Shown in pieces: positions 16,501-56,413 of a stretch of DNA of 64,000 nt. The DNA is from Acidobacteriota bacterium (GTDB lineage Bacteria > Acidobacteriota > UBA6911 > RPQK01 > JAJDTT01): positions 704,001 through 768,000 of the forward strand of contig CBDCJH010000002.1 of assembly GCA_965217775.1 (NCBI GenBank), written 5' to 3'. A program made the position numbers and the translations under genes. The notes beneath the pieces are model-generated. The model worked only from the letters and a program-made list of their open reading frames with translations. It did no database searches and was not told the DNA's origin. Within the stretch, counting starts at the first letter, position 1. Every line of letters starts with the position of its first letter.

Positions 16501-19500
16501 AATTCTCGGGTGCTACGTTGCGGGACGTGTTTCCGCGGCCGACAACGTGGGCGGTCTGGCCGGGATGAACTTTTCCGATGGGGCGATTCGCGGCAGCTAT
16601 TCCACAGCCTACGTGTCGGGAGACGACGACGTGGGCGGGCTGGTGGGGGACAACCGCAACGAGATCTCCGCCAGCTATGCCACCGGCCGGGTGTCCGGGA
16701 ATACCGATGCGGGTGGGCTGGTAGGGAACAACAAGTCCGCCGGCGAAATCACGGCCAGCTACGCCACGGGTCCTGCGTCGGGTGACGCCAATGTCGGCGG
16801 CCTGGTCGGTTCCGACGAGGGCGGAACGATCACCAACAGCTATTGGGATACGCGAACCTCGGGCCTCCGTTCCGGGTCCGCCGGTACAGGCAGGACGACA
16901 GCGCAGTTGCAGTCGCCCACAAGTTACGGCGGCATCTTCCGAAACTGGAACCTGGATTTGTACGGAGACGACGACAAGGATGATCTCTGGGACTTCGGCA
17001 CGTCCAGCCAGTACCCGGTCCTTTCCATTGACGTGGACGGAAACGACGACACGACGTGGGAGGAGTTCGGCTACCAGCTTCGTAAGGGACCGGTCGTGAC
17101 GGCGACGTCCACGACACGGTCCCCCGACCCGGCCCAAGTGGTGGTGACCTGGACCGAAGTGGCTGTAAACAGCGAGTGGATGCCGGCGCCGACTGTGAGC
17201 TACACCGTGACCCGCGTCGACGGCGACACCGTCGAGACCCTGGCGGAGGACCTCTCCGTGCGGACGTACACCGACTCCGACGTGACGGCCGATGAAGACT
17301 ACACGTACCAGGTCGCGGCGGTCGTCTTCGGCGGAGAAGCAACGCGTAGCGCAAGAGTCACGGTGAAGGCGCGAGGCAACGGGGCGCCGATGCCGGTGGG
17401 GTACCTGCCGGACCGGACGTTGCGCGTGGGCGACTCGGCCATGACGGAATTTTCGGGGGCGTTCCAGGACCCGGAGGGAGACGCGATCATCTACGGGATC
17501 TCGTCGTCGGATACGAGTGTTGTCCTGGTCACCCGTTCGGGGACGCGTTTGACGATGACTCCCGTCGGCGAAGGGGATGCCGTCATCACGGTGACGGCCA
17601 CCGACGACGGGTCCAACCGGAGTTCGACCCAGGAGTTCAAGGTGGTGGTGCTCTCGACATCCACGACCGACTACGACACCGACGACGACGGACTCATCGA
17701 GATCAGCAATCTGGAGCAGCTCGATGCGGTCCGTCACGATCTGGACGGGGACGGTCTTCCGAGCAGCGGATATGCCACGTATATCGCGGCGTTCTCCGGC
17801 GCCGGCGATGAATTGGCCTGCGGCGGCCTCTTCGGGTGCGTGGGGTACGAACTCCGCGCCGATCCGGACTTCGACACCGACAACAGCGGCGCCGTCGACA
17901 GGGGCGACAACTACTGGAACAGCGGAGCCGGGTGGGTGCCCATCGGTGACTCATCCAGCAGCTTCGCGGCCATCTTCGAAGGGAACGCGCGGACCATCAC
18001 CAATCTGTTTATCGATGGTAGTGGAAACGACGTCGGATTGTTCGGTGAGACCACGTCGTCCGCAGTCATCCGGAACCTGGAGATGGTCGCGGTCCAAGTG
18101 ACGGGAACGGACCAGGTCGGCGGTCTGGTGGGTTCCAACAATGGCGCCGTCAGCGGGTGTTTTGCCACGGGTAAGGTGTCCGGCGACGACGATGTCGGGG
18201 GCCTCATCGGAGCCAACCTGAGTGACGGGGCCGTGACCGTCAGTTACTCCACCGTCCACGTGACGGGGGACGACCGCGTCGGCGGGCTGATCGGGTCCAA
18301 CAGCGGAGTCGTGACCGCCGCCTACGCGACGGGCCGAGTCGTGGGGGATTTCGAGGCCGGAGGATTGATCGGCCGGAACACCGGTGACGTCAACATCAGC
18401 TATGCCACCGGTCTCGTATCGGGCCGCAGCACCATCGGTGGCCTGGTTGGCCGCAACAGCGGGGGCGGCAGGATCACCGACAGCTATTGGGACAGCGACA
18501 CCTCGGGGCGCACCACGGGATCCTACGGCCAACCCCAGAACACGTCAGCGTTGCAGATGCCCACGGACACCAGCGGCATCTATCAAAACTGGAACGTGGA
18601 CCTGAACGGCGACAGCATGAACGACGACCCCTGGGTCTTCGGAACCTCCAGCCAGTACCCGGTCCTGTCGGTGGACACGAATGGGGTCGGCGGGGCGACG
18701 TGGCAGGAGTTCGGCGAACAGATTCGAAACAGCCCGGCCCTGATGGCGACCCCCGCGCTGGGCCAGGTGACGCTGACCTGGTCCGCCGTTTCGAATGTAA
18801 CCTACAACCTCTACCGCACCTCCGGAAGCACCGTCGAGATCATCTCCGAGAACACTTCAAGCCGCGCATACGTCGACACCGACGTGACCGCCGGCGCCAC
18901 CTATGTCTATCAGGTGGCGGCCGTGATCAATAGCGGCGAAGCGAGCCGAAGCATGCGGGTTTCGGTGGTCGTGCCGATCCCGGATGTGACGGATCCGACG
19001 GTCAGCAAGGTGGAGATCACGTCGGACCCGGGATCGGATTCAACCTACGCGCTCCGGGATGTGATCGAGGTGACGGTGACCTTCAGCGAGGACGTCTTCG
19101 TGACGGGGTCGCCGGAGTTGACCCTGAGGGTGGGGGACGAGGATCGAACGGCGGACTACCAGAGCGTTACCGACGAGGAGATGTTGTTCCGCTACCGGGT
19201 GGACACCGGCGACGTGGACACCAACGGCGTCAGCATCGCGGCGAATAGCCTGTCGGTCAATGGAGGGACCATCGAGGACGGATCGGACAACGAAGCCGAT
19301 CCGGATCATCGCGCATTGGGGAACAATTCGCGGCACAAGGTGGACGGGATCAGGCCGGAGTTGGCGCCGACGCGCGGGGCCGTGGTGAATGGGACGACGT
19401 TGACGCTGACCTATACCGAGCCTCCGGACTCGACATCGATGCCGCCGTCCAGCGCGTTCTTCGTCTCGGGGGGCGCTTCGTCGCGCACCGTTTCTGGTGT

Positions 19501-22500
19501 CGCGTTTAGGGGCAGTGCGGTGGATATGACTCTCTCCTCCGCGGTGGCGCATTGGGAGACGGGGATCCGTGTGAGCTACACGGTCCCGACCGGGATGGGG
19601 GCGATGCCGATTCAGGACCGGGCCGGCAACGACGCGGACGGACTGAGCAGCGTGCCGGTGATAAACGAGACGCCGGACCGTATCCCTCCCACGGTCACTT
19701 CCATCGAGATCACCTCGGATCCGCCGGACGGCCGGGATGTCTACGGCATCGGCGAGGAGATCGAGGTGACGGTGACGTTCAGCGAGACGGTCACGGTGTC
19801 CGGGAACCCGGGAGTGACGCTGAAGGTGGGGGCACGGGATCGATCGGCGACCTACGAGAGCGTCACGGGGGCGGTGGTCGTGTTTGCCTACACGGTGGCC
19901 GTCAACGACAGCGACACGGACGGGGTGAGCATCGAGGCGGGCAGCCTGTCGGGCGGGACGATTCGGGACATCGCCAGGAACAATGCGGTCCGGACCCACT
20001 CGGCGGTAGCGGCCGATACGGGACAGCAGGTGGACGGCATCAAACCCGTACTGGCGACGACCGACGGGGCGGTGGCGAACGGAACGATGCTGACGCTGGC
20101 CTACAGCGAGCCGCTGAATTCGTCGTCGGAGCCGGACAACGACGCCTTCTCCGTGACGGGAGGGAACGAGACGCGAACGGTCACCAACGTCCAGGTAAGC
20201 GGGAGTGCAGTGGAGCTGACCGTGGATCCGGCGGTGGAGCATGGAGAGACGGGGCTGCGGGTGAGCTACACGATCCCGACGGGAACGGGAGCGAACCCGA
20301 TCCAGGACCAGGCGGGCAACGACGCGGACCGGTTGAGCAACCGGAGCGTCACCAACGTCACGGGAGACACGACGGGACCGGCGGTGCAGACGATGAGGAT
20401 CACCTCAAGTGCGGTTTCGGATTCAACTTACGCCAGAGACGATTCCATCGAGGTGACCGTGACGTTCAACGAGACGGTGGTGGTGACGGGTACACCGCGG
20501 TTGACGCTGAACGTAGGCGGACGGAATCGAACGGCGGAGTACCTGAGTGTCTCGGGCTCGGCCGTGAAGTTCGAGTACAAGGTCGTCTCGGGCGATCGGG
20601 ACCGGGACGGGGTGAGTATCGACGCGGACAGCCTGTCGCGGGGCGGGGGGACGATCCGCGACGGAGCGCGGAATGACGCGACCCTGACTCACGCGGGGGT
20701 GGCGGCCGATTCGCGGCACAAGGTGGACGGAGTGCGCCCGATGCTGGCCACGACGGACGGGGCGGTGGCGAACGGAACGACATTGACGCTGGCCTACAGC
20801 GAGCCGTTGAACTCGTCCTCGCGACCGGCGGCGAGCGCCTTCACCGTGACGGGGGGCAGTGAGACGCGAACGGTGACGCGGGTGTCGGTGAGCGGGAACG
20901 CCGTTTTCCTGACGTTGAGCCCGGCGGTGCAAGACGGAGAGTTCGGCCTCGGTTTGAGCTACCAGCCGGGATCGAATCCGATCCGGGACGTGGTGGGCAA
21001 CGCGGCGGACGAGTTGAACAACGAACCGGTCACGAACCGGACGGGAGACACGGCGGGGCCGAAGGTCGAGACGGTGAGGATCACGTCGAACGCGGGGTCG
21101 GATCAGACCTATGCCATCGGCGAGACCATCGAAGCGACAGTGGCATTCGACGAGACGGTGTTGGTGACAGGCACGCCGCGCCTGACGTTGAACGTGGGAG
21201 GCCGGAGCCGGACGGCGAACTACCAGGACGTCACGGGGGCGGCCGTGAGGTTCGCATACCAGGTGGTCTCGGGCGACACGGCCGCGTATGGGGTGAGGAT
21301 CGATGCGAACCGCCTGTCGGGCGGGACGATCCGCGACGGCGCTCAGAACAACGCCGTGCTGAACCACGCTCCGGTGGCGGCCGATACCCAACACCAGGTG
21401 GACGGGGTCAAGCCGACGCTGGCGACCAGCGACGGAGCGGTGGCGAACGGAACCACGTTGACCCTGGTCTACGGCGAGCCATTGGATACCTCTCCGCTGC
21501 CGTCGACGGACGACTTCACCGTTACGGGAGGGAGCGAGACCCGGACGGTCACGTTGGTTCGGGTCGACGGGAGTGCCGTTTTCCTGACGCTGAGTTCGGC
21601 AGTAACGGACGGAGAGAGCAGCCTGCGAATGAACTACGAGCCGGGATCGAACCCGATCCAGGACACGGCCGGCAACGATACGGATCGGTTGAGCAACCGA
21701 AGCGTCGCGAACAAGACGGGAGACACGTCGGGCCCGACGGTGTCGACGGTGCGGATCACGTCAAGTGCGGGGTCGGACCGGACCTACGGGAAGGACGAGA
21801 CCATCGAAGTGACGGTGACGTTCAACGAGACGGTGGTGGTGACGGGGACGCCCGAAGTGACCCTGAACGTCGGCGGCCGGAACCGAACGGTGGAGTATCG
21901 GAGCGTCTCGAACCGGGCGGTGAAGTTCACCTACCGGGTGGTGACGGGCGACGAGGACGAGGGCGGCGTGAGCATCGAGGCGAACCGGTTGTCGCGAGCC
22001 GGTGGGACGATCCGGGACGGGGCGGGCAATGACGCCACCTTGGACCATACGGCCGTGGCGGCCAGTACGAGCCACCAGGTGGACGCGGTGGCTCCGGCCC
22101 TGGCCCTCACCGACCCGGCGGTGGTGAACGGGGCGACGCTGACGCTGACCTACCACGAACCGCTGAATACGTCCTCCCGGCCGGCCGCGAGCGACTTCAC
22201 CATCGCTGGGGGCAACGAGACGCGAACCGTGACCGCGGTCCGGATCGGCGGGAGCACGGTGCAGTTGACGCTGAGTCGCCGGGCGGAACACGCAGAGATG
22301 GGGATCCGGGTGAGCTACGAGCGGCGATCGAATCCGATCCGGGACCGGGTGGGCAACGACGCCGAGGGGTTCACAGATACGTTCGTAGACAACCAGACGC
22401 CGGACACGACGGCGCCGTCGATCGAAGGGATCGAGCTCAGTTCGGACCCGGGGACGGACGAGACGTACGCTATCGGAGACCTGATCTCGGTGACGGTGCG

Positions 22501-26873: not shown

Positions 26874-27319
26874 TCATTGTCCGGGCCGCCCCGAGCCGAT
26901 GACCTCGACCAGCTCCGCCACCACTGTCACGGCATCCTCATCCTCGGTCGTCAGTTCGATGGGCTGGAATTCCGGATTGACCGGTTCGAGCAAAATCCTG
27001 ACATGTCTCCAAACCTCCTCATCGGCCGTCTTCTCGCTCCGATAGCGCTTCACCGTGAAACGCTGGCCCGTATCGGGATCCACTTCATCCCGTCGAGATA
27101 GAGGCAGATACCCTCGTCCGGCTCGTCGTCCTCGGCACGGTAGATGACGTCCGGCGTGGTGGCCGGCTGCAACGGTGGTATGTCGTGGTCGAAGGACAAA
27201 CGGCGTCCCCACTCGTCGAATCGAAGGATCTTCGGTACACCTTCACCTCGCGATTCGAGGAATACCTGACCGGTGCGCCGGCTTCGAATCCTGGACCCGA
27301 AACTGACCGGGAGCTGGTC
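26874..27319 (-). pseudogene. Mosaic of three gene fragments: AlbA_2/HATPase tail, probable helicase tail, S24-like C-terminal domain
   Basis: SRIRSRRTGQVFLESRGEGVPKIL matches the 30203 gene; then TTPDVIY...EGICLYLDGM; then DPDTGQRFTVKRY...LEPVNPEFQPI...VAELVEVI*. Confidence 0.65.
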
Positions 27320-27401
27320 CGTTCTGAGTAGAGGTCGGAGAGACCTTGGAGGGGGCGCCAGAAACTTGTGATTTCCGACCCGCCCGGGTTCTGGCGTTCC
27401 C

Positions 27402-28688
27402 TCAGACAGGTGTCGGCGCGTCCTCCCCATCTCCACCGGCTGCATGGATCGTCAGCAGCAGTTCCGCATCGCCGATCAGGCGGTACTCCGGCGTTCTACC
27501 GGACAAGCGTTCGCTGTTGTCCAAGATGATGGGCACACCTTCTCCACGCTTCTCCGTCAGGGTTCGCCGATCCGTGTGAAGCCAGGGCTCATCCGGTGCG
27601 GGGCACTTCGTCACCAGGCTGCAGAGCGCTTCGTTCCGGGCCGACTGCATGAAGGGGAGACTCTCGATGGTCATGGAGTTGGCGATCGTCCCTGGAGAGT
27701 AGAGTTCCAGTCGGTTCTCGAACAAGCGCAGCCGGACCTTGGACCCGTACACCGAATAGTCACGATGCACGACGGCATTTACGACCGCCTCGAACACGGC
27801 CGTCATGTCGAACTGCGGACGGTCGATGCGCCCCTGGTCCTTGAACGCGGCGATCCTCATGTTTTTTGCGACGAACCGACAGGTCTCGATCACCTGACGG
27901 TCCAACGGCCCGGAAAGGTTCGCGGCGTCCAATTGATAAATGGCCCCCGGGTGGGCTCGAATCCTGTTTCCCCGATATGCGACCGCTTGAACGTAGGCGT
28001 TGGGCAGCCATCGCTGCGGGTCCTCACTGGCCATGAGCACACCGGCGACAGTGGGCCTCCACACGCCCTCCTCGTCCACCTGCGCCAGGTTGAGCTTTTC
28101 CAGAAAAGCCTCCCGGTCGTCGCCGGAGCGGGCGGTTCGAAAACGCTTCCAGAGGTGGGAGGAGAGATCGTCCAAGCGCGCCCGCGGAACGACCTGCTCG
28201 TCGAATCGGATAAGGCGAGTCTGGCTGCGTTGTTGAAAAAGTCGGGCGAGGTACTCCGTGGACATCCGCCGCTTGGCGTTGGCCATGCGGTGCAGATAGC
28301 CTCCGGGACTGCGGTGGACGAACAGACTGCGCGGCACGTCGATCTTGACCAAGGCGAGCTCTTCACCCGTGCGCGCAGGCAGTCGCAGATGTTCGACGAC
28401 AAGGGGCTCTACGGGCGGGTCGATCAAGTCGATGCACACTTCGCGGACAAAGTCCGTCACCGTTTCAAGACGATCGAGAGGAATGCCGACGACGTCATGC
28501 GTCTTGGCCTCGATTCCCAGGACGAGCCCGCCGCCGCGCGTGTTGGCGAAAGCGGCGATGGAGTCGGCAAGTGAGTCGCGGTGTGGTGCGGTGACCCGAT
28601 GACCGGCAAACCGCACCTCTTTGACTTCAAGGTAGGAGTCTTCTCGCAGTCGAATCTTGTCCAGCAGTTTCTTCCTGCCATTGAACAT
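27402..28688 (-). CDS. Schlafen/AlbA_2 domain + HATPase_c_4 (RecG C-terminal-like) protein, copy 2
   Basis: EDSYLEVKE, AFANTRGG, EAVVNAVVHRDY, RLELYSPG and EKRGEGV motifs. Confidence 0.88.
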   Translation of the reverse strand: MFNGRKKLLDKIRLREDSYLEVKEVRFAGHRVTAPHRDSLADSIAAFANTRGGGLVLGIEAKTHDVVGIPLDRLETVTDFVREVCIDLIDPPVEPLVVEHLRLPARTGEELALVKIDVPRSLFVHRSPGGYLHRMANAKRRMSTEYLARLFQQRSQTRLIRFDEQVVPRARLDDLSSHLWKRFRTARSGDDREAFLEKLNLAQVDEEGVWRPTVAGVLMASEDPQRWLPNAYVQAVAYRGNRIRAHPGAIYQLDAANLSGPLDRQVIETCRFVAKNMRIAAFKDQGRIDRPQFDMTAVFEAVVNAVVHRDYSVYGSKVRLRLFENRLELYSPGTIANSMTIESLPFMQSARNEALCSLVTKCPAPDEPWLHTDRRTLTEKRGEGVPIILDNSERLSGRTPEYRLIGDAELLLTIHAAGGDGEDAPTPV

Positions 28689-28874
28689 CCTGAAGCTCCC
28701 GGGGACTCGACACGGGGATTCTCGGACCCACGAGCCTACGTCGTCGCCGCCGGAATGCCGGAGGGACGCATGGAACGGAAAGTATGCCAGCAGAAAATGA
28801 AGACTTCAGCCCCTGCGGGACGAGTCGTCAGGTCTTTTCGGCGTGGGATGGCCCTGCGTCGACAGGCTCGCAAG

Positions 28875-28903
28875 TTGACATTCGGTAGCGGTCGACCTAT
28901 GGT
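28875..28903 (+). promoter_or_regulatory. Sigma70-type promoter of the Xre-RES operon
   Basis: TTGACA-17 nt-TATGGT, 23 nt upstream of the ATG at 28927. Confidence 0.65.
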
Positions 28904-28926
28904 CGCGATCCATCGGAGACTGAAGG

Positions 28927-29376
28927 ATGAAAACAGTCGCAACCATCTGCAGACTCGGCCCGGAAGAGGCGGCCGAGCAGGTATTCAGAGCGCACGAGCA
29001 CGAAAGCGCCTGGCTCGACGCTTTTGCCAACAGCCTTGATCGCCGGCGCGCGGGCGGGTCCTTGGCGCGAACCCTCGAGGTATGGGATCTGAGCCAAGCC
29101 GAAGCGGCCCGTCTTTTCGGGGTGAGCCGCCAGGCGGTCGGCAAATGGCTGCGACGGGGCGTGCCCCCGGAGCGCGCTGGTGCAGTCTCGGACTTGGCGG
29201 CTGCCACCGACCTCCTCGTGCACTATCTCAAACGTGACCGAATCCCGGCCGTCGTGCGCAGGCCGATCCCGTCGCTTGGTGGCGTGTCCCTGGTGAACCT
29301 GCTGGCACAGGGTGACACGCGAGCGTTGGTGGCGGCATGCCGCGACATGTTCCGGTTCGAGCGAGTGCAGGCGTGA
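28927..29376 (+). CDS. Xre/MbcA/ParS-like antitoxin (HTH)
   Basis: LSQAEAARLFGVSRQAVGKW HTH; RRPIPSLGGVSLVNLL C-terminal toxin-binding motif. Confidence 0.8.
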   Translation: MKTVATICRLGPEEAAEQVFRAHEHESAWLDAFANSLDRRRAGGSLARTLEVWDLSQAEAARLFGVSRQAVGKWLRRGVPPERAGAVSDLAAATDLLVHYLKRDRIPAVVRRPIPSLGGVSLVNLLAQGDTRALVAACRDMFRFERVQA

Positions 29377-29969
29377 CCCAGGAACTGCGGCGTGAAACGG
29401 TTCCGGATGTCCACGTCTGGTGGCGTATCGCCGATCCGGCATGGACCGATCCGCTGGATCCGAGTTTGGCGGGGAAGCAAGGTGGACGCTGGAACCCGCC
29501 GGACAGTTTCCCCGTGCTCTACCTGAACGAAGACATGATGACGGCGCGCCTGAATCTTCGGGCTTTCATCGCCAAGTGGCCATATGAACCGGAAGACCTT
29601 CGCGATGACACGGGTCCGATTCTGCTGGGCTGCGTCCTGCCGCGCCGGCAGGTCGTCTGTGACGCACATTCCCAGGTTGGTGTTCGCGCTCTCCGGCTAC
29701 CCGACACCTATCCGTTCGAAGCGGACGGAACACTGGTGCCGCAGGTTCGCTGTCAGTCCATCGGAGTGCGGGTCAAACCGGCGCGTCTACGCGGCGTTCA
29801 CGCACGATCGGCGCAATCCCGGGACCCTTCTGATCGCGAGTTGGCCTGGTTTCCCGCCTCTGTTCGCAGCGTTGCTCGACGGGTGCGAACGCTCGCGTTC
29901 GCGGCGTGGTATCGGGGTTCGCCTCGGCAGAATCGATCTGTTCAATCGGCGCGCCAGTTGGACAGGTGA
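29373..29969 (+). CDS. RES-domain toxin
   Basis: WWRIAD, GGRWNPPDSFPVLYL and RSAQ; GTG start overlaps the antitoxin stop (GTGA). Confidence 0.82.
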   Translation: MTQELRRETVPDVHVWWRIADPAWTDPLDPSLAGKQGGRWNPPDSFPVLYLNEDMMTARLNLRAFIAKWPYEPEDLRDDTGPILLGCVLPRRQVVCDAHSQVGVRALRLPDTYPFEADGTLVPQVRCQSIGVRVKPARLRGVHARSAQSRDPSDRELAWFPASVRSVARRVRTLAFAAWYRGSPRQNRSVQSARQLDR

Positions 29970-30005
29970 TCCTTCAGGTCCTCCAGCAACGGTTGGAGGT
30001 CGCTC
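29942..30005 (-). pseudogene. 3'-terminal remnant of a second ABC-ATPase/TOPRIM gene
   Basis: SDLQPLLEDLKDHLSNWRAD* versus SDLQPFLENLKDHLSKWRTD* at the end of 31550-33103 (16/20 identical). Confidence 0.8.
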
Positions 30006-30029
30006 TGGAGAAAAACATCGGGACGCCCA

Positions 30030-30188
30030 GGACAGGGACATCCTTGTCCCCCACACTCCCCCCGGAATCGGCGGCAAGAAAACCGCCGCTCCCCCTGCCA
30101 CTCTTCTTTCTCACGGTTTTCCTCCGGTCCCCGGTGTAGTGGTCCTGACGGCACAAGAAAGTGACCGCAAGAAAGTGAATGTCCCCTT
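30030..30188. repeat. REP-like palindrome cluster
   Basis: GGGACATCCTTGTCCC, CGGCGGCAAGAAAACCGCCGCTCC, and duplicated CAAGAAAGTGA followed by ATGTCCCCTT. Confidence 0.65.
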
Positions 30189-30202
30189 CTACACGATCGA
30201 AG

Positions 30203-31420
30203 TCAGGCGATGGGCTCGGGGTCCTTTGCCCACAGCGTCAGTCGAAGCTCGTCCCCGAACAGCTCGTACTTCGGGCGGCGCCCCGAGTGCGCTTCGCCGT
30301 CCTTGAGGATCTTCCGCACGCCCTCGCCTCGCGATTCCAGGAATACCTGTCCCGTGCGCTTGCTCCGGATCCTGGACAGGAAACTGACGAGGAGTTGGTT
30401 GCGGGTGAATGTCCGGTAGGGCATGTCCTGGAGCGTGATGGTATTGGGCAGCTTGCCCGGGCTGTACAGTTCCAGCCGGTCAGCGAACAGGAAGAGACGG
30501 ATCTTGGAGCCGGCGATGGCGTAGTCTCGATGGGCGACCGCGTTGACGATGGCTTCGTCAACGACGTCGATGTCGTACCGGGCACCAGCACCGGCGGAGA
30601 CTCCGGTTGGCATGAAGCGGGCGACGAAGGCGATTCCGGCGTCGATCTGATCGGATACGGGACCGGCCAACCGCTCCGCGTGGATCAGATCCTCCGAGGA
30701 CAGGCGGGTTCCGTGGTAGCATGCGGCTTCGATGGACCCGGAGGCAAGAAACTCGGTCGGCTCCGTTGCGAAGACGAGCAAGCCGGCAACGGTCGGTCGG
30801 TCCACCCCATCCTCGTCCCGGGACACGACTCGCGTATTGCGCAGCAGGTCGAGCCAGGGGATGATCGGCGACCGCCCGAAAAACGCTTCGAGTCGATTTC
30901 GGCTGAGATCTCCCACGGTCGCGGCAAGCACGAGCTGTTCGTCGAATACGTACTCCCGGCCGCGCTGCTGGAAGAGCCGGGCCAGTTCCGAGGGCGCCAG
31001 ATCCCGTTTCGTGGACCCGACCCGCGTGTAGTAACGGCCACCCGAAGTTCGGTGAACATAGAGGCCCCGGGCAACCTCCACCAAGACGATCCGCTCATCT
31101 TTCGCACCATCGCCTGGCAGCACCGCCTTGCGGACCAGCGGCCGGATCGGCGGGTCGCAGTTGTGGGTCGCGACGTTGAGGAGCCAGTGCTCGACGACGT
31201 TCATTTTCGCCAACGGAATCCCGGTCACTGCACCCGAATCATCAACGCCAAGGAATACGACGCCGCCCTCGGCGTTCGCGAACGCCGCCAACTCGCCGGC
31301 GAGTTCTTCGGTGTTGGGAGATAGGACGCCTCGATCACCGAAGCGCACCTCCTTGAACTCAGTCCGACCGTCTTCACCGGCACGAAGTTGGTCCAGAATC
31401 TGGTCTCTCGTGTCGAACAT
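30203..31420 (-). CDS. Schlafen/AlbA_2 domain + HATPase_c_4 protein, copy 1
   Basis: EDGRTEFKE, AFANAEGG, EAIVNAVAHRDY; start at MFDTRD (GGAG RBS) by analogy with the paralog MFNGRK. Confidence 0.88.
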   Translation of the reverse strand: MFDTRDQILDQLRAGEDGRTEFKEVRFGDRGVLSPNTEELAGELAAFANAEGGVVFLGVDDSGAVTGIPLAKMNVVEHWLLNVATHNCDPPIRPLVRKAVLPGDGAKDERIVLVEVARGLYVHRTSGGRYYTRVGSTKRDLAPSELARLFQQRGREYVFDEQLVLAATVGDLSRNRLEAFFGRSPIIPWLDLLRNTRVVSRDEDGVDRPTVAGLLVFATEPTEFLASGSIEAACYHGTRLSSEDLIHAERLAGPVSDQIDAGIAFVARFMPTGVSAGAGARYDIDVVDEAIVNAVAHRDYAIAGSKIRLFLFADRLELYSPGKLPNTITLQDMPYRTFTRNQLLVSFLSRIRSKRTGQVFLESRGEGVRKILKDGEAHSGRRPKYELFGDELRLTLWAKDPEPIA

Positions 31421-31549
31421 CGATCTACTCTCCAAGTCGTCCGGTATGAGGTCGGCATCGGTCAGTCACAGGTAGCGCTGAGCCATAGCACAGGTCGTTA
31501 CGATTGTGGAATCGGCGGGACGCTTGTTGTCGGAAGGAGGGCCATCGAC

Positions 31550-33103
31550 TCAATCGGTGCGCCATTTGGACAAGTGATCCTTCAGGTTTTCCAGGAAAGG
31601 CTGGAGGTCGCTCGTTTCGTCGGCAGCTTCGATCCGGGCGATCAATCGGCAGACTTCGGGACCGGTCCGGTTTTGTGCTTCCGCCAAGTTGTAGAGCTTG
31701 GTCTTGGCAATTGCAGATTCGATATCGGTCGCGGTGCTGTAAAGTGCGTCCAAGCGCCGGATTTCTCTGGCCAGGCTCTCCGAGTCGATTCCCAGCTCTT
31801 GGGCATAAACGTGGGGCGCCTCTTTCAAACGTCTCCAGATCCAGATTTCCGGAGCATGTTTGCCGGGTAGATACAAGATTGGGACACGGATTCTGTCGGC
31901 GCTCTCGCGTATTTTCCGAGCCACATCGCTCTTTTGCTGATCACCGTCAAGGACGAACACGAAATTGTCCAGCAAGCCGAACTTCCTGAACGCCGCGGCG
32001 TGCATCGCGAACTCGTCGGCGCCCGTATTGCGGCCGACCTGAATCGACTCTCTTCTGATTCTCTCCTTGGGGATGAGATGGTCGAGAACCCCGTTCAGAA
32101 TTCCCTCGGCGGGTTCGTCCTCACAAAGCAGATTCAAAGCGTCGCGGGACCGGCCATAGAGCGCATTCCGGATGATGTCCCGGTGGGCCGGGTACAGCGT
32201 CACCTGCCCGTCGTCGCCGCGCTCGAGGAAGATCCGTCCATTGCCCGGCACCGAATCGAGCACTACCGGACTGTGGGAAGTGACGATGACCTGCAGATCG
32301 TTGCGGAGAGCAAGCTGTTGCAATTGGAGCATGAGAAGCTGTTGCACCCACGGGTGCAGGCCGGCTTCGACTTCGTCGATCAGGACGAGGGCGTCCCTCA
32401 GTTGCGCGATTTCCAGGGACAACCGTAGGATGGCGCGTTCTCCCGCCGCCATGTGCAGTTCGGAATAGGAGGCTCCCGTCTCCTGCTCCGCGAACAGCAG
32501 ACTCTTTTTCCCGCTGGACAGATGGACGACATCGGAGTAGCTGAACGGCAGCATCTGCTGTGCGAAGTTGATCTGGGAGGCCGTCAGCGATGTCTCCTCG
32601 GGTGCATCCTTCAGATGAGACATCCGAAGCACCCGGCGCACCTCCGACGGATTGCTGAGGTTGGTCAGGGTGCGCAGGTAAACGGGGCGTTCGGGTTGCA
32701 CAGCGCCCTTGCGGCCGAAGAAGCTTCGATTCCAGCCCTTGACCCGCCGCCAGCGCATGGAACGTCGGCCGTTTGGTGTCGAGTACTCGAACTCGATGGT
32801 GACCGGTTGTCGTTCGTCCTCGCGGTCACCGTGCCGGGGACGGTAGTCGGGGAAGAGAGTGGAGGGTACGAAATCCTTCACGCCGGCCCCTGGGACCTTG
32901 TAGGCGCTGGCGGTGGCAAAAAGCACGGTGGACTTGCCGCTGGCGTTGCCGCCGGCAATGACGCTTACCGGGTAGTCGAAAGGCACCGTGAGATTCCGGA
33001 TGTCCCGGATTCCGGCAAGGCGAACCTCTTCGAGAAAATGCGGCATGCTCCGCTTTTTCGCTTGAAGTCGCGGCCACAGTTCTTTGAGCCTCCGGGCGGT
33101 CAC
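31550..33103 (-). CDS. ABC-type ATPase with C-terminal TOPRIM-like domain (OLD-like architecture)
   Basis: Walker A GGNASGKS, signature MAAGE, Walker B LIDEVEAGLHP, H-loop TSHS; C-terminal LLCED...VLDGD; start overlaps the MTase stop. Confidence 0.85.
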   Translation of the reverse strand: MTARRLKELWPRLQAKKRSMPHFLEEVRLAGIRDIRNLTVPFDYPVSVIAGGNASGKSTVLFATASAYKVPGAGVKDFVPSTLFPDYRPRHGDREDERQPVTIEFEYSTPNGRRSMRWRRVKGWNRSFFGRKGAVQPERPVYLRTLTNLSNPSEVRRVLRMSHLKDAPEETSLTASQINFAQQMLPFSYSDVVHLSSGKKSLLFAEQETGASYSELHMAAGERAILRLSLEIAQLRDALVLIDEVEAGLHPWVQQLLMLQLQQLALRNDLQVIVTSHSPVVLDSVPGNGRIFLERGDDGQVTLYPAHRDIIRNALYGRSRDALNLLCEDEPAEGILNGVLDHLIPKERIRRESIQVGRNTGADEFAMHAAAFRKFGLLDNFVFVLDGDQQKSDVARKIRESADRIRVPILYLPGKHAPEIWIWRRLKEAPHVYAQELGIDSESLAREIRRLDALYSTATDIESAIAKTKLYNLAEAQNRTGPEVCRLIARIEAADETSDLQPFLENLKDHLSKWRTD

Positions 33104-36100
33104 GAGGGGTTGTCCTTTCTTCGCGGTTGACGGAAACCCTCCATTGCCTCCGCTGGCGGGGGGAATAGGGGCTTCTGACTGGGTGTTGCTTCACCGTAGT
33201 CGGAACGCCGCTCCGCCACAAGCGGGAGGGAGTCTTCGGACGTGCCATCGCCGGAGGCAGAAACCAAGCGTCCGTATTCACGGGCGCCAAGCAGGTTTCG
33301 GGCGTGCAAGTGGCATTCACGCCAGGACTCGTCGGCGCTTTGAACCAGTTGCCAGTCGAAGCACCGCGGCCCGAGACGGCTTGCGACGGGCTTCGGAGTC
33401 AGTCCAAACAGATTGGGCGAAGCACACGGATGCACCCAGGGATTTAGCTGCACGACAAGTCGTGCCATGTACTTCCTGGCCCGTTCAACCTTGGGTAATG
33501 CTATCTCCGATAGCATACTCCAGACTAAGTGCGCGGCACCGCCGCGCTGTCGGATCTGCCAATCGAAGACAAAGGAATTGAGGTATGCCAGAACGCCAGG
33601 ATCAATGATCTCCGAATCCTTTTCAGAGCAAAACACGGGGGCGGAATGGCCGCACGGAAAAGGAGGAAGCAGTGCGCCAATGAAGGACCTGACATCGGTA
33701 TCACGCGAAATATCTCGAAACCCTACTTTCATGGCGGAAACGTGGCGCTTGTGGTCTCGAGCGTCGTTCATTGGCATTAGATATTGTGGATCCCATACAA
33801 GATTCAGCGGATCAACGTAGTTCCATTTTGCCCTGAGACCGGTCCCGCTCAACCATCCTCTCGCGCTCGGCATGAACGGCTGGATCATGATCCCTTGGTA
33901 CAGTGGTAGTGCGATATCCTCGATGCGGTCCTCCCAGATCCACGCATTTCCTCCGCGTGAGAGGATCACTCCCGCTCGAATCTTTGCCCGCGAAATTGGC
34001 AGTCGATCATAGGGCGGTCGAGCGCAGCGCAGGTACCAGTCGGTGCGGGCGACATCTCCGGGGTTCAGCAGGTGACCGTGGACGAATTGCGTCTCGGCTT
34101 CCCGGCGTTCGGGGCCTGCGGTCGTATCGAACAGCCAATCTTCAAGCTCGATCTCCGCCGGCTCGGGCCGGGACGGATCGACGCCGAGTTCTGCCCAGAG
34201 TTCCTCGATGGGCCGCCAGTCGCCCGGCAGCCACCAGTTGTACTCGTCGGGGCGATAGCCTTTTGCCTCCCACCGCGGGCGGGGCGGGAAGAGGCGGGAG
34301 TCGTTCGTCATGTCGAACTCTCTCGCATAACGGATCCCCCACCCATCCGGCCCGTCATCGCCCAGGAGTACGGAATTGGCGTAGATCTTCTCCAGAATCT
34401 CCAGATCGCGCTTCGACTGGATTTCAAGAATGGCCCGGCTCCGGGGACTAAACCGTTCGACCTGCGCCCGGGTATAAGACGTAGCCAGTCCCTCGGCGCG
34501 CTCCCAGTCGTCCAGATTTCGCCGCATGAACGTCGTGCGGATGGCTTCCGTGGCGCCGCCCTTCTCCACGATGACCGGGTTGAACTTGTAGCTCCTGTGA
34601 ATCGCGAAGACCTTGTTGCGGTTCTCGATACCGAACAGCCATGCCCAACGGCAGCGCTCGAGAAACAGCCGTCTCAACGCGCCCGTCCCGTTGTCGGAGT
34701 ACAGCCCGGAGGGAATGATGAATCCAAACCGGCCGCCGCCTCTCAGCAGCGCGTGTGCGGCTTCCAGAAAGAGCTTGTACAGGTTCAGATCCGCCGAGCC
34801 CTGATGGCGGAATGGATGGGACGGATCGACGAAACCCGTGGCGCGGTCGCGGGCTCTCCTCCATCGTGAGTGAAGCTGTTGGTTCTTGTTTCCCCGAACC
34901 ACCAGGAAGCGACGCTGGCTCTTGGCGTTCTCTTCGGGGTCTCCGAACGGGCTTGCGGCATGGCTCGCGTAGTTGGACTGGGCGCGAAAACGAGCGTTGT
35001 AGTCCAACCAGTCACGCTCCACAGAGGCGTCTTCGAAGTAACTCGACTGCCTCCGCAACGCTTGCTGCTTGCCGTAGGATCGATAAAGAGGATCAATGTT
35101 GGAAAAGAACTCCTTGGAGATGGGTTTGGCGATGTCTCAGGGCGGATTCCCGAGGATTGCATCGAAACCCGAACCCGGTTCTCGATATACGTCCGGGAAC
35201 TCCAATTCCCAATGAAAGAATCGCATCTCGGACTCGATCTGACGGGCCACGTCCCGCGTCTCCTCCGACGGCTCGGCGAAGGTGCTCGGCAACAGAGCGA
35301 CTTCGATCACCGGATAGTGCCGGAACTGGTCGAACCACGCTCCGATCAGAGAGTTTCCACACTTGATCTTGTGGTCGAGGAACCCGAACGGCAGGGTGCG
35401 GTCCATGGTCTCGATCCAGAGGGAGAGACGGCAGAGCTCCACCGCCAGGGGGTCCAGGTCCACGGCGTAGATGCACCGTTCCACCACGTGTCGGCGCAAC
35501 ATCGCCTTGAGGCGCGACTCGAAGCGGTCGTCGTCCGGAGGGCAGGGGATCAGCTCGTCGGCGAGGCGCGGCTCTTGTGTGGTGTCCGGGTGCTTCTCAC
35601 CATCGATGCCCAGCAGCCGGACCAGGGAACGCGCCCCTTCCGGTTCGATGCGGCCGTGATGCTGGAGCGAGGCGTACAGCGCCTCCGTGAGGAAGCGCAA
35701 AGCGGCCAGCGGAAAGGTCCCGGACCCGCAAGCCGGGTCGCAGACCTTGAGCTCCAGGATTCGTTCGGGGAGCTTCGGTGTCCAGTTTGCCGGCGCCGCA
35801 TCCCGATGTACTCGGAGGAGAGATCGGAGAAGTCCACAGGGACCACGGCTCGAGTGCCGCCGCGGCCCTGACGGATCCGGATCGTCGTCCGGGTCAGAAG
35901 CTTCAGCATCTCGTAGACGTCGTGATCCGGCAGGACTTCGCTCTCGAAACAGGCGCTCTCGAACACGGAGAGTGCATGGGAGAGACCCTCCGCCGCATCG
36001 GGCTGTCCCGGTGAGAACAGGTCCCCGCCATACGCCGTCACCGGCAGGTCGGGGTGGTGCGACCCGTCCCGCACCAGCGCGAAGAGGGCCAGCACGCGAG

Positions 36101-37080
36101 GCCACCCACCGAAGCTGTGCGCGAGAGCGCCGGGGCGGGTCGCCGCCCGTTCAAGTTGGTCGAGGAGGCCGTTCAGTCCGTAGCTCTCGTGGTAGAGGGA
36201 GTTGTCGCGGGGCAGCAGTTCCCGGGACTCGGCGAACAGGATCACCACGAGCCGCATCGCAACCCGGCAGGCGGCGCGGTAGATGTCGGCGGGATCGACG
36301 GTGCCGCATCGCTCCTTGAGCGCCTCGCCGTGGCCCTGGATCAGGAGTTCCACAGCCTCGCGGACCCGCTCGCCCAGGACTTCCGAGAGTTCCGCCTGTC
36401 CCTTGCGGGTGTCCCGAATCGCTTGCAGCAGCGGAGCTTCGGCACCCTCGCTCTCAGGCGTCCAGAGTTCCGGCCTCAACAGCGTGCGGAGCGCCGTCAC
36501 CTGCGGGGAGAGTTCGCCATGCTCGAACCACAGTTCCAGGTCCCATTCGCACCAGGCATCGAAGTCGAGCCCGGCGAACAACAGTCTCCACTGTCGGCCG
36601 TTCGTCACTACCGCCAGGTGATCGTTGCCGACGCGCAACCAGCCCAGTACTTGGCTCACGGTGCGGCGGCTCCTGCCGATGCCGAGGCGCTTGCCGCTCC
36701 GGTCCAGGAAGACGGGCAACCTTCCACCGTTGGGACCCGTCCAGAGCTGGCGGGGTTTGACGGTCTCGCCGGTGACGGCGCGGTGTCCCCAGGACGGGGC
36801 GACGTGGCTGCCGCGCGTCCAGTCGCCCGCCGATGGGTCCAGACCACAGACCCGTTCCAGAACGAAGGTTGCGAACGAACGAAGGTTGCGAAGGATGAGG
36901 TGTCGCCGTCCCCGTCCAGCATGGAACTCGCATGCTGGCGGAGCTGGCGCTCGGTGTGTTCGTCGAGAGGACCGGGCGCACTTCGGGCAATTGCGCCCAA
37001 CCGCTTGGGATCCAGGAGCCGTCCGCCGTGGCTGAGGCGCCCCCATCCCGGCAGACCGGGAGTGTGGACTTGGCGCCTTG
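33100..37080 (-). pseudogene. Large N6-adenine DNA methyltransferase (Eco57I/DrmMI-like), disrupted
   Basis: LVVTNGRQWRL, YGGDLF, DPACGSGTF, AVDLDPLAVELCRLSLW, FHWELEFPDV, GNPP*, DLNLYKLFLE; frameshift at ~36876, deletion at ~35800, stop at 35137-35139; 5' boundary approximate. Confidence 0.85.
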
Positions 37081-37128
37081 TTCTCACGATTGGCGCTCCA
37101 ATGGAGCCGCGTGTTGATGTCAAGGTCG

Positions 37129-37849: not shown

Positions 37850-39708
37850 CCTCGGATTGACCGCTTGGGCAGGCGAATCTCCACTGCCACGGGAAACACC
37901 TGGACACCACCCGCCAGGGTGAATCGGGCCGGCAGGAGGTGATTCAGGATGCGGGAGCGTTCCCGCCCCAGTTGTTCGCGGATTTCTTCGTAGTGGATCC
38001 GTCGGCGCTGGAGTTCCTTTTCTCTTTCCTCGATGGACTGTTCGATCTCTGAGAGGCGTTCAGTGCCATCGAAGAGTCGGCCCTGGCGTTTCCGGGTCTT
38101 GAGGCGCTCGATATCTCGTCTGAGTCGGGCCATGGTCGATTGCTGGATCAGTGCCGACACCTCCCCCTGGCGTTGCCGGTAGCGGTCATCCTCACGTTAG
38201 CGGGCCGCCTCTCCATCGGCTCGAAGCCGGCGGCGAAAGCATTCGGTCAGCTCGTTCGTGTAGTTGCGCAACCATCGGCGCAGTTCTGCGCGCATCTCTT
38301 CCAGGACGTCGTCGGCAAGAATCCGGTCGATCGCATCCTCGGACCCGCACGCCCCGCGAAGCGTCCGGGCGGAAGCATGAGGCAGCGGTTCGTCGAACTC
38401 TCCGTCTCGAACGGGCAGCGCCACCGTTCGCACCCAGCGGTGAAAGGTCTCGCGCAGTTGGTTCACTCCCAGTTCTTCGACGCTGAGCAGGGCCACGGCT
38501 TCGGCGCCGTCGGGAACGCTCCCCAGACGCACCGTCCAGCGGGAGACCTCGCTGCCGCTGCCGGGATAACGGCGCCGGGTGAGGACGCTCAACGCCCGCT
38601 GCATCATGGGGTGGACCAGGTGCATGAGCAGTGCGTCGGGGCGGGGAAGGAAGACGCTCAAGCTCCCAAAAGGTGATCGATGAACGGCTCGGTGCTGAAA
38701 GCGAGGCGCGGCATCGCCCCGTAACCGCCCCCGGGAGCAGGACGCCGCACCGATTCATCGATGACGTTGCGCCAACCTGCGAGACCGGGGTTGCGGACTC
38801 TGTAGAAACCGGGCTCCTCGGCGACCTGGAGTTGCGGCCGGCCGGCGGGAATGGCCATGGCGGTCTCCAAGGTGTCGTAGAGGGCGAGGTCGTCGCCCGC
38901 TGTCTTCGCCGAAGGGGGACGGCATCAGGTTATGGCACTCGTCGACGATCAGCAGGTCCCAGGGCAGATGCGGCGAGCCCGGCGGCGTGCGGCAGGCCGA
39001 CAGGAACTGCTCCTGCACGTCGGGTTGGCGCAGGTAGTGATAGGAGGCGACGATACGGCTGAACGAACGCCACGGGTTGGCGTCCATGCCCAGCCGGCGA
39101 CGCAGGCGCTCGGTCTCCGGACGGTCCACGACCTCGAACCGGAGCGAGAACTTTTCCCAGAGTTCTTCCTGCCATTGCCGGCGCAGCGAGGCCGGCGTCA
39201 GGATCAGGACCCGCTGAATACGGCGGCGAAGCAGCAGCTCGGTGAGGATCAATCCGGCCTCGACGGTTTTGCCGAGACCGACGTCGTCGGCCAGCAACAG
39301 GCTGACGCGGGGCATGCGGAGGGCCTTCAAGAGGGGGACAAGCTGATAGTCCTCGACGCGCACGCTGCCGTGGAACGGACTCGCGACCGGCTGGCGGCTG
39401 GAAATGCCTTCACCTCTCGGGTCTACGTAGGGAGAGAGCGCCGTCCAGCGCGCCGCGCGAAGGAGCGCGTCGAAGTCTTCGGGGCTCATGGGGTCCGCCC
39501 AAGCCGGGTCCGGCAAGTCGGTCGGTTCCAGAAGGTTTCGTTTGGGTTCCAGTTCCCACAGCAGGCGCTCCTCGCCTGGCGCGTGGTCGTCCTGGTATTC
39601 CAAGTGAACGAGGTGGATGCGCCCCTTGTCGCCGTCGAAGGGTTCGACGGACGCGATCACGCCGACCCGATTACGGACGGTGGCGAGCGCCGGTGCGCGG
39701 GATGTCAC
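37850..39708 (-). pseudogene. SNF2-family helicase (DISARM DrmD-like), internally deleted and frameshifted
   Basis: EDYQLVPLLKALRMPRVSLLLADDVGLGKT, LIVDECHN, LMHLVHPMMQRAL, VNQLRETFH, VFPVAVEIRLP; second RecA domain missing; stop at 38197-38199; 3' end approximate. Confidence 0.85.
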
Positions 39709-40039
39709 CAGTTGCGGTCGGGGTGGTCACGGTTCACTCCGCAAGCGCCGCCTTCGAGCCATGAGGGAAATCCTGGAATGTCTCGTTGAGCGGGGGTCTC
39801 TCTCCCTGCGAATATGATACGAGTCGGATCCAAGATTGGCGAGTGATGGGCGCTGGGATGACGAGGTTGGTGCGGGAAGTTCCGTTCCCTGCGAGGGCTT
39901 GTCGTGTCCAGTCGTAGCTACCTAAGGGTAGCCTGTGCCCGTTCTCGAAGCCTGAGGTTGTCGACTTTTCTGCGTCACACGAATCTTCGTCGACGATCAC
40001 GATGTCTGAGCAAATTCTGAACACCAGAACGAGCGTCCG

Positions 40040-56015: not shown

Positions 56016-56413
56016 TTCTGGTCGATTCCAGTGTCTGGATCGATTTCTTCAATGGTATTCCATCACCAGAAACCGATCGTCTCGATGGCCTGTTGGGACA
56101 GGATATGGTGGCAACCGGCGACCTGATTCTGGTGGAAGTCCTCCAGGGATTTCGCAACGACCCGGATTTCAGGGCGGCGCAGCAAGCACTGTCGAAGCTG
56201 CCGTCTTTCGACCTGCTCGGACGAGAACGGTCGCATCGGGTTGCCGTGCGCTATCGAAGACTGCGCAGGAACGGAGTCACGATCCGCAATACCGTCGACG
56301 TCGTCATCGCCTCCTTTTGCGTCGACGAGGGGATCCCGTTGCTGTTCTCCGACCGTGACTTCCTGCCTATGGTCAAATATCTGGGTCTGAAGCCGGTGAT
56401 ATATCTCCACTGA
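56012..56413 (+). CDS. vapC: VapC/PIN toxin
   Basis: ILVDSSVWIDF, EVLQG, TVDVVIA and FSDRDF; ATGA overlap with vapB. Confidence 0.92.
   Translation: MILVDSSVWIDFFNGIPSPETDRLDGLLGQDMVATGDLILVEVLQGFRNDPDFRAAQQALSKLPSFDLLGRERSHRVAVRYRRLRRNGVTIRNTVDVVIASFCVDEGIPLLFSDRDFLPMVKYLGLKPVIYLH

Follow-up and report, generated by a model that had tools for sequence, protein, structure and literature searches.

HEC-04 (Hma-embedded candidate 4) has been published as a fusion of an ABC ATPase with a TOPRIM nuclease that lies embedded in Hma (helicase-methylase-ATPase) systems; one representative was enough, as a single gene, to protect E. coli, and mutation of the Walker A motif or the TOPRIM metal site abolished this defense (bioRxiv 10.1101/2024.01.29.577857), and IbfA of IncI1 plasmids has been described as a HEC-04 homolog (PMC12111858). 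Embedded genes are a published pattern in Hma, BREX (bacteriophage exclusion), DISARM (defense island system associated with restriction-modification) and type I systems. We analyzed a 64,000-nucleotide stretch from an Acidobacteriota bacterium (GenBank assembly GCA_965217775.1, contig CBDCJH010000002.1, positions 704,001 to 768,000; "the window" hereafter), in which a HEC-04-type gene lies at 27.2-33.1 kb together with two genes for Schlafen (AlbA_2) proteins that carry a GHKL ATPase domain.

The Schlafen plus GHKL unit has been named the "Schlatpase" supradomain and counted in 60,692 of 103,533 prokaryotic Schlafen proteins, most of which are small and carry nothing else or a small helix-turn-helix (HTH); in a Schlafen-Argonaute fusion, ATP binding to the GHKL domain drives tetramerization and tRNA cleavage (bioRxiv 10.64898/2026.05.29.728809, 2026). 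A second study reports the Ex4(E/D)xK motif and finds the HisKinase fusion (pSlfn-HisKinase) to be the commonest bacterial Schlafen architecture, at 34% (PMC13056530, Nature Microbiology 2026). In at least 1017 taxa, close linkage of Schlafen-HisKinase genes to the cores of BREX or BREX-related systems has been reported, and the genes have been read as backup effectors (PMC12839542).

Judged by its flanks, the 27.2-33.1 kb interval is a variable cargo slot, running from the methylase to the DruE-like helicase, of a decayed DISARM/Druantia-like system, and as such it fits the embedded-gene pattern. We hold it to be quite probable that the ATPase and Schlafen-GHKL genes are independent, stand-alone defense genes that accumulated as cargo in this dead system's slot, neighbors by shared address rather than an obligate sensor-effector pair. 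The parts belong to described families and their arrangement is a published one. Our analysis establishes what this reading rests on: which families the proteins belong to, that their catalytic residues are conserved, how the slot is built, that linkage is not conserved and that selection is purifying; the triggers, the substrates (tRNA or DNA) and a backup role for the dead core we infer. Three genes of the slot are intact:

31550..33103, minus strand: HEC-04/IbfA-family protein, OLD-like ABC ATPase with a fused TOPRIM nuclease, 517 aa, intact (Pfam, PADLOC, fold)
30203..31435, minus strand: Alb1, stand-alone Schlafen(AlbA_2)-GHKL protein, 410 aa, intact (Pfam, motifs, fold)
27402..28688, minus strand: Alb2, stand-alone Schlafen-GHKL protein, 428 aa, intact (Pfam, homologous loci)

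In the mechanism that we propose, the HEC-04/IbfA-family protein would work alone, its OLD-type ABC ATPase probably sensing and switching and the TOPRIM domain fused to it acting as the nuclease effector. By analogy with the Argonaute fusion, ATP binding to the GHKL domain of the Schlafen-GHKL proteins would drive oligomerization, assembling an active Schlafen tRNase. An HTH-RES toxin-antitoxin pair in the slot would be further cargo, and the remaining pieces would be leftovers of earlier occupants.

The intact cargo genes and their described relatives

The 517-aa protein matches Pfam AAA_21 (2e-15) and AAA_15 (3e-14), and the Pfam TOPRIM models gave no match in its TOPRIM half. When the proteins of the window were compared with the 5027 defense models of PADLOC, its best model was HEC-04 (PDLC04149; 1e-38, 131 bits, profile positions 18-416 of 494, 81%) and its second ATPase-Toprim_I-B (1e-23), and the Septu PtuA, AriA and GajA models matched within the ATPase core only. 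Across 10 homologs there is no variation at the Walker A, Walker B and H-loop residues, G51, K57, T59, D243 and E244 all being unchanged; in the TOPRIM motif of the same set, E328-D329 and D386-G387 are invariant and D388 is present in at least 90%. An AlphaFold2 model (mean predicted local distance difference test score, pLDDT, 72) has the Thermus OLD nuclease 6p74 as its top fold match (E 2.5e-12), followed by GajA, the retron-Eco8 OLD protein and PtuA. We accept the TOPRIM half because of the PADLOC models, the conserved Glu/DxD residues and the OLD nuclease fold match.

The 131 bits obtained with the HEC-04 model compare with 736 for one protein of the same phylum, and identity to the plasmid-borne relatives is 22-29%; by these measures the 517-aa protein is a distant member of the HEC-04 family. 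Like HEC-04 and IbfA, it is a polypeptide of ~500 aa in which an OLD-type ABC ATPase is followed by a C-terminal TOPRIM domain, with the Walker A Lys, the Glu and the DxD in place, and it is lodged between genes of a helicase-methylase system. It differs in that its host system is DISARM/Druantia-like, not Hma. The gene begins with a GTG that shares bases with the TGA stop of the methylase frame upstream (GTGA), the methylase being a pseudogene.

Fold and domain order are also shared with P2 Old and Gabija GajA, OLD-family nucleases, as the top structures (6p74, GajA, retron-Eco8 OLD) illustrate. Assignment to Gabija itself was rejected: there is no UvrD-type GajB or helicase gene in 27.2-33.1 kb, and GajA scores 1e-13 to 1e-14 against 1e-38 for HEC-04. 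PARIS (AriA ABC ATPase plus AriB TOPRIM) follows the same logic of an ABC ATPase and a TOPRIM domain and also sits with restriction-like systems, but the domains fused in the window protein are separate proteins there; it was rejected on the AriAB model (1e-13 against 1e-38) and on gene content.

Alb1 matches Pfam SLFN_AlbA_2 (PF04326, 5.8e-15) and HATPase_c_4 (PF13749, 3.4e-18), and Alb2, which is 37.6% identical to it, matches the same two families (PF13749 at 2e-15). Both have the E-x4-E-x-K motif, and in an alignment of 29 homologs from both clades its residues E21, E26 and K28 are invariant, as are the GHKL motifs (N-box and G-box) E294, N298, H302-R303-D304 and R369-G370-x-G372. All 29 sequences stop right after the GHKL domain; Alb1 and Alb2 end ~10 to 20 residues past the HATPase_c_4 match, with no HTH tail. 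Most Alb1 homologs begin at MFDT, which corresponds to an ATG near 31420 rather than to the annotated TTG at 31435, and this ATG is likely the true start. A model of Alb1 (pLDDT 76) has as its top match the structural-genomics protein 3lmm, then mammalian SLFN14, 11, 12, 13 and 5, with further matches to histidine-kinase ATP domains including HK853, to PDK1 and to the SAMD9 tRNase domain.

These features are those of the stand-alone Schlafen-GHKL proteins ("Schlatpase", pSlfn-HisKinase): an AlbA_2 domain with Ex4ExK, then a PF13749 GHKL domain, in a small protein encoded beside restriction-like systems. Alb1 and Alb2 differ in lacking the C-terminal HTH found in many family members. Both align to positions 54-436 of the PADLOC Schlafen-pAgo model, its N-terminal Schlafen plus GHKL part, and thus share that part with Schlafen-Argonaute proteins (SLFN-pAgo, RzAgo), in the available literature the only setting in which a mechanism for the supradomain has been worked out; unlike those proteins they have no Argonaute core and hence would have no guide-based sensing. 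Cleavage of tRNA has been demonstrated in Schlafen proteins of other architectures only. The possibility that Alb1 is the "ATPase" of an Hma system was rejected, there being no PADLOC Hma match for Alb1 or Alb2.

Pairwise estimates (NG86) of the ratio of non-synonymous to synonymous substitution rates (dN/dS) are 0.14-0.17 for the ATPase, 0.09-0.15 for Alb1 and, within the genus, 0.22-0.33 for Alb2. This range, 0.09 to 0.33, indicates that the three intact cargo genes are under purifying selection.

The slot and its core genes

Comparison with relatives by tblastn places remnants of core genes on both sides of the 27.2-33.1 kb interval:

37861..39717, minus strand: DrmD-like SNF2 helicase pseudogene, upstream core gene (PADLOC, NCBIfam, tblastn)
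33100..37087, minus strand: DrmMI/type IIG-like N6-adenine methyltransferase pseudogene, core gene (three open reading frame, ORF, pieces)
26880..27223, minus strand: DruE-like DUF1998 helicase, C-terminal scraps, downstream core gene (tblastn)

The 317-aa N-terminal ORF of the DrmD-like gene matches PADLOC DrmD (3e-76) and NCBIfam DISARM_DrmD. With an intact 1194-aa relative as query, residues 115-485, 853-924 and 914-1192 were matched by tblastn in shifting frames, and residues 486-852 are missing. Set against the intact 1778-aa protein of L001, the methylase pseudogene shifts frame near 36878 and again near 35800, carries an in-frame stop codon within 35058-35137 and gives no match for residues 427-628, 795-910 and 1549-1681. 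The DruE-like scraps correspond to residues 1639-1728 (40% identity) and 1889-1974 (69%) of the 1974-aa L080 helicase (PADLOC DruE 6e-98; Pfam DEAD, Helicase_C, MZB and Peptidase_S24), and relatives keep a DruE-like helicase intact downstream of the methylase. With all three core genes broken, the helicase and methylase core of the window is dead.

The order of genes in the system is DrmD SNF2 helicase, small ORF, DrmMI-like methylase, cargo and DruE-like helicase. It is like Class 1 DISARM and Druantia in its DrmD (1.8e-199 for a full-length relative), DrmMI (5e-119), DruE (6e-98) and DUF1998/MZB components; it differs in combining them as a hybrid set, in a methylase whose best score is type IIG-like and, in the window, in the breakage of the three core genes.

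The slot was surveyed in 16 loci found through the methylase alone, among which the gap between methylase and helicase is 1.3 to ~9 kb wide. Its content elsewhere includes an AAA_15/21 ATPase with HNH (Septu-like), an OLD-TOPRIM ATPase with a UvrD helicase (Gabija) and a Zeta toxin, a bacterial HORMA protein with a 4TM effector (CBASS-type), and Fic, SIR2-STAND, E2/ThiF, DUF4365, PIN and transposase genes; a true Gabija pair occupies the slot in L174. Of the 16 loci, 4 have a Schlafen-GHKL gene within the slot, and 3 of these 4 are not close relatives of the window; a HEC-04-type gene lies there in the close relative only. The slots of sister genomes (L001:12210-16389 and L079:7577-8941) hold a TOTE-type AEP primase-helicase with an RlaP-like gene, and an HTH-M78 peptidase (RmrA/CapP-like). 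These contents show that cargo turnover within one genus is fast.

The window is a natural example of defense genes lodged between the genes of helicase-methylase systems and exemplifies the published idea that such places repeatedly take in OLD-type and Schlafen-type nucleases. It also illustrates that cargo can outlive its host system and stay under purifying selection. In its description of the genes the original prediction, made from the DNA sequence alone, was accurate: the intact ATPase-TOPRIM gene overlapping the methylase, the intact AlbA_2-HATPase gene after it and a second, divergent one, the 64-bp ATPase remnant, the inserted Xre-RES pair (with weak HTH matches), the scrap of a third Schlafen gene, the E-x4-E-x-K motif without a C-terminal HTH, the recurring ATPase-Schlafen order and the retention of cargo after the death of the core were all recovered.

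Linkage of the two families and alternative readings

That prediction went on to propose that the ATPase and Schlafen genes form a sensor-effector pair and an undescribed system, and suggested a check of their co-occurrence. We assembled 18 ATPase-centered loci, comprising 10 close homologs (58-95% identity; Acidobacteriota, Nitrospirales, Dehalococcoidia, Longimicrobiales, Rhodothermales, Acidimicrobiales and others) and 8 HEC-04-family hits from the same phylum, in which the family occurs in 8 of 401 genomes. With a hidden Markov model built from 101 Schlafen-GHKL sequences, a Schlafen-GHKL gene was found beside the ATPase in 1 of the 18, a close relative of the window (L009). Pfam found no AlbA_2 or HATPase_c_4 domain in 66 ORFs neighboring ATPase homologs; the neighbors include a HAD hydrolase, valyl-tRNA synthetase, AbiJ, Fic, a UvrD-like gene with DUF2290 and transposases.

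The reciprocal set holds 140 Schlafen-GHKL-centered loci, 68 of the Alb1 clade (66-97% identity) and 72 of the Alb2 clade (53-98%). Of these, 4 have a HEC-04-type gene no more than 6 kb away: the close relative (L043), a sister genome in which it is a fragment (L079), and L072 and L108, where the ATPase is convergent with the Schlafen-GHKL gene and not operonic with it. The window's genome has 14 HATPase_c_4 matches against one HEC-04-type gene. Among the nine genomes of the genus, the window's genome and G148 have an intact ATPase, which is in pieces in G403, cut to 129 residues in G260 and not found in five; an Alb1 ortholog is present in the window's genome and, frameshifted, in G403 only. 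G148 has an intact ATPase without an Alb1 ortholog, and G260 has Alb2 at 98% identity with only the 129-aa ATPase fragment.

Because the families are unlinked elsewhere (1 of 18 and 4 of 140 loci) and uncoupled within the genus, the two genes are not a conserved pair, and the sensor-effector claim does not stand. Nor does the claim of an undescribed system, since the ATPase matches the named single-gene HEC-04; both results are ones that the prediction itself had listed as refuting it. A third proposal, that the genes back up the methylase/helicase system, agrees with the published backup-effector idea. That work treats each family separately: its BREX catalog lists TOPRIM/OLD-ABC modules and Schlafen-HisKinase-wHTH genes apart and, in the part covered, pairs OLD-ABC with HNH, PD-(D/E)xK and PIN but not with Schlafen (PMC12839542). 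A complex prediction for the ATPase and Alb1 with alignments gave no verdict for or against the pair (0.00 and 0.00 against a mark of 0.32, controls not having been run).

A trace of a second ATPase lies upstream of Alb2:

29942..30005, minus strand: second, diverged HEC-04-type ATPase, 64-bp 3' remnant with stop codon (DNA and protein identity)

The remnant aligns with the end of the intact gene (31613..31550 against 30005..29942, minus strand) over 64 bp at 87.5% identity (E 3e-19), and its translation keeps 16 of 20 residues and the stop codon. The sister genome L079 has a longer fragment ~700 nt upstream of Alb2, corresponding by tblastn to residues 399-517 at 63% identity, and a genome search of the genus gave residues 389-517 at 61%. 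The 64-bp tail in the window is homologous to the end of the L079 fragment, and on this comparison the second ATPase was a real gene, ahead of Alb2.

Several observations weigh against our reading of the genes as independent cargo. The order of ATPase then Schlafen-GHKL gene occurs twice in the genus, co-directionally both times, once with a 114-nt spacer between the intact ATPase and Alb1 and once as the ATPase remnant ahead of Alb2. In L072 and L108, which are unrelated genomes, a HEC-04-type gene adjoins a Schlafen-GHKL gene, more than random placement would give for a family present in 8 of 401 genomes; clustering in defense islands would equally produce these neighbors. Schlafen-HisKinase constructs tested in E. 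coli gave no defense in a study in which only the DUF262 and Ig-like fusions protected (PMC13056530). Finally, members of the Alb2 clade are closely tied to a different ABC ATPase-nuclease, Ppl/TrlF, so that some Schlafen-GHKL proteins do have an ATPase as partner.

This coupling is extensive. A gene of ~945 aa precedes Alb2 homologs on the same strand in 59 of 72 loci and abuts their start in 57; one annotated member scores 597 bits against the NCBIfam "TrlF family AAA-like ATPase" (cut-off 350) and 6e-126 against PADLOC Ppl. The resulting cassette of a Ppl/TrlF PHP-ABC ATPase and a Schlafen-GHKL gene usually has an 8-nt overlap and occurs in many phyla (loci L082-L150, for example L086:10-7296, L095:7315-9708 and L115:9614-11668), lying between pglX and pglZ-brxL of type 1 BREX wherever enough flank is available. 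A Ppl-like gene was found in 0 of the 68 Alb1-clade loci, and tblastn gave no Ppl match in the window. In 57 to 59 of its 72 loci the Alb2 clade forms the Schlafen-GHKL half of the cassette; the window has a HEC-04-type ATPase tail upstream of Alb2 where the cassette has Ppl. A Ppl remnant upstream of the window's Alb2 was considered on account of one frame with an Arg-rich stretch loosely like Ppl C-termini; it was dropped, as the DNA of the window, L079 and L080 did not align to the Ppl 3' ends of five other loci and tblastn was empty. Ppl has been published as a single-gene system, and among the matches listed in a literature search no publication names a Ppl-Schlafen pair.

The genome of the window also has a type 1 BREX locus, outside the window (C2:540942-551062), with three tandem Schlafen-GHKL genes between pglX and pglZ. 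Ppl is reduced there to a dead stub (a 30-aa start, a stop and a 34-aa end) that abuts an intact Alb2-like gene, 65% identical to Alb2, with one further Schlafen-GHKL gene on each side. No HEC-04 gene is present in this locus.

Since Ppl is coupled to the Alb2 clade in 57 to 59 of 72 loci, usually through the 8-nt overlap, the partnership of a Schlafen-GHKL protein with an ABC ATPase-nuclease is a real theme, and the window could hold a lineage-specific version of it: a two-gene system in which infection is sensed by the HEC-04-type ATPase-TOPRIM, which governs the Schlafen-GHKL tRNase encoded downstream or acts together with it. There would have been two copies of the module, and Alb1 and the orphan Alb2 may now share the one ATPase that survives. 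Such a system would account for the gene order seen twice in the genus and for the neighbors in L072 and L108, but the latter genes are convergent, 17 of 18 HEC-04-type loci have no Schlafen-GHKL gene, 136 of 140 Schlafen-GHKL loci have no HEC-04-type gene and the Alb1 clade has no Ppl-like partner in any of its 68 loci. Moreover, the ATPase persists without Alb1 in G148 and Alb2 without the ATPase in G260, and the HEC-04 representative works alone in the published account. We regard this alternative as unlikely; it keeps its place mainly because of the double occurrence in the genus and the Ppl precedent, and if true it would represent a new modular class of two-effector systems.

A broader version, to which we give a similarly small chance, takes Schlafen-GHKL proteins to be exchangeable second effectors for ABC ATPase-nuclease sensors, most of the Alb2 clade working with Ppl/TrlF and this partner having been swapped in this genus for the HEC-04-type ATPase-TOPRIM. 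The ATPase partner has been lost twice in this genome while the Schlafen-GHKL gene stayed intact, once leaving the 64-bp remnant in the window and once the Ppl stub in BREX. If this version were true, the tRNase half would have been kept alone or be served in trans by the surviving ATPase, and "ABC ATPase-nuclease plus Schlafen-GHKL" would be a modular two-gene class.

We think it very unlikely that Alb1 is instead an accessory of the DISARM-like system, a second effector or guard wired to the methylase and helicases, with the ATPase inserted later between methylase and Alb1. Alb1 homologs do directly follow a DrmMI-like methylase in 13 to 17 of 68 loci, and a DruE-like helicase follows the Alb1 homolog in at least 10 loci, with very short gaps in L017; the published linkage of Schlafen-HisKinase genes to BREX and BREX-related cores points the same way. 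However, sampling centered on the methylase found Schlafen-GHKL genes in only 3 of ~14 loci that are not close relatives, many Alb1 homologs at 73-86% identity sit among housekeeping genes, and in the window the core is dead yet Alb1 is conserved. That the whole slot is decaying with its core, its intact ORFs functionless and merely not yet broken, is scarcely credible: breakage has reached the core genes, the second ATPase and the third Schlafen-GHKL gene, and the ATPase, Alb1 and Alb2 appear frameshifted or truncated in the close relative G403/L009, but those breaks may be assembly errors, every catalytic motif is kept and dN/dS is low in all three intact genes.

Independent cargo is the preferred reading, with the ATPase and Schlafen-GHKL genes brought together by their shared address. 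The commonest bacterial Schlafen architecture is one without a demonstrated phenotype in the published tests, and for this reason the intact, conserved and partner-less Alb1 and Alb2 are reasonable test cases.

The distribution of Alb1-type genes is wide. At 73-86% protein identity they also occur among housekeeping genes (PhyH, ABC transporter, deacetylase, radical SAM) in several phyla. Alb1-type genes at this level of identity (loci L011-L078) are present in Latescibacterota, Gammaproteobacteria, Spirochaetia, Gemmatimonadota, Acidobacteriota, Binatia and others, and many of the genomes have more than one copy, either full or 3'-truncated. That genes this similar are common to at least six phyla points to recent exchange. 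In L015, L040, L055 and L073 only a short C-terminal piece of a DrmMI-like methylase lies upstream of the Alb1-type gene; such pieces suggest exchange of cargo by recombination in conserved flanks.

The HTH-RES pair and other features of the window

Two further features of the slot lie downstream of the ATPase and Alb1:

28927..29969, plus strand: HTH(Xre-like)-RES toxin-antitoxin pair (Pfam RES, weak HTH)
27200..27388, minus strand: third Schlafen-GHKL gene, 189-bp scrap of its GHKL part (tblastn)

The RES gene (29337-29969, plus strand) matches Pfam RES at 2.5e-10 and is preceded, with a 40-nt overlap, by a 149-aa HTH gene (28927-29376, plus strand) that has only weak HTH matches, below curated cut-offs. 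The two genes are found together in at least 6 other loci. The last ~9 codons of the RES gene are antisense to the ATPase remnant, an overlap that may explain the survival of exactly this ATPase tail; without the HTH-RES insertion, the tail would be ~240 nt from Alb2.

A scan of 27.0-33.4 kb for promoters and terminators returned 1 promoter-like and 7 terminator-like sites, against 0.8 and 5.0 in shuffled sequences. The lone promoter-like site (28875-28903) is just upstream of the HTH-RES pair, its count being not above that of the shuffles. As the counts are near the shuffled level, the scan says nothing on operon structure.

The third Schlafen-GHKL scrap aligns by tblastn with residues 326-387 of Alb1 at 58% identity over 65 aa (E 1.7e-10), and L079 carries the same scrap after Alb2.

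Elsewhere in the window, a single ORF of 4908 aa (10502-25228, plus strand) has seven SWM repeats, a fibronectin type III domain and GLUG motifs, and its product is probably a giant surface or adhesin-like protein. At 56063-57269 (minus strand) lie two ORFs, of 194 and 202 aa, that are the halves of a second OLD/AbiL-type ABC ATPase; the N-terminal one has matches to AAA_15, PDC-M25A, AbiLi and HEC-01A, and the gene is probably a further defense gene that has broken.

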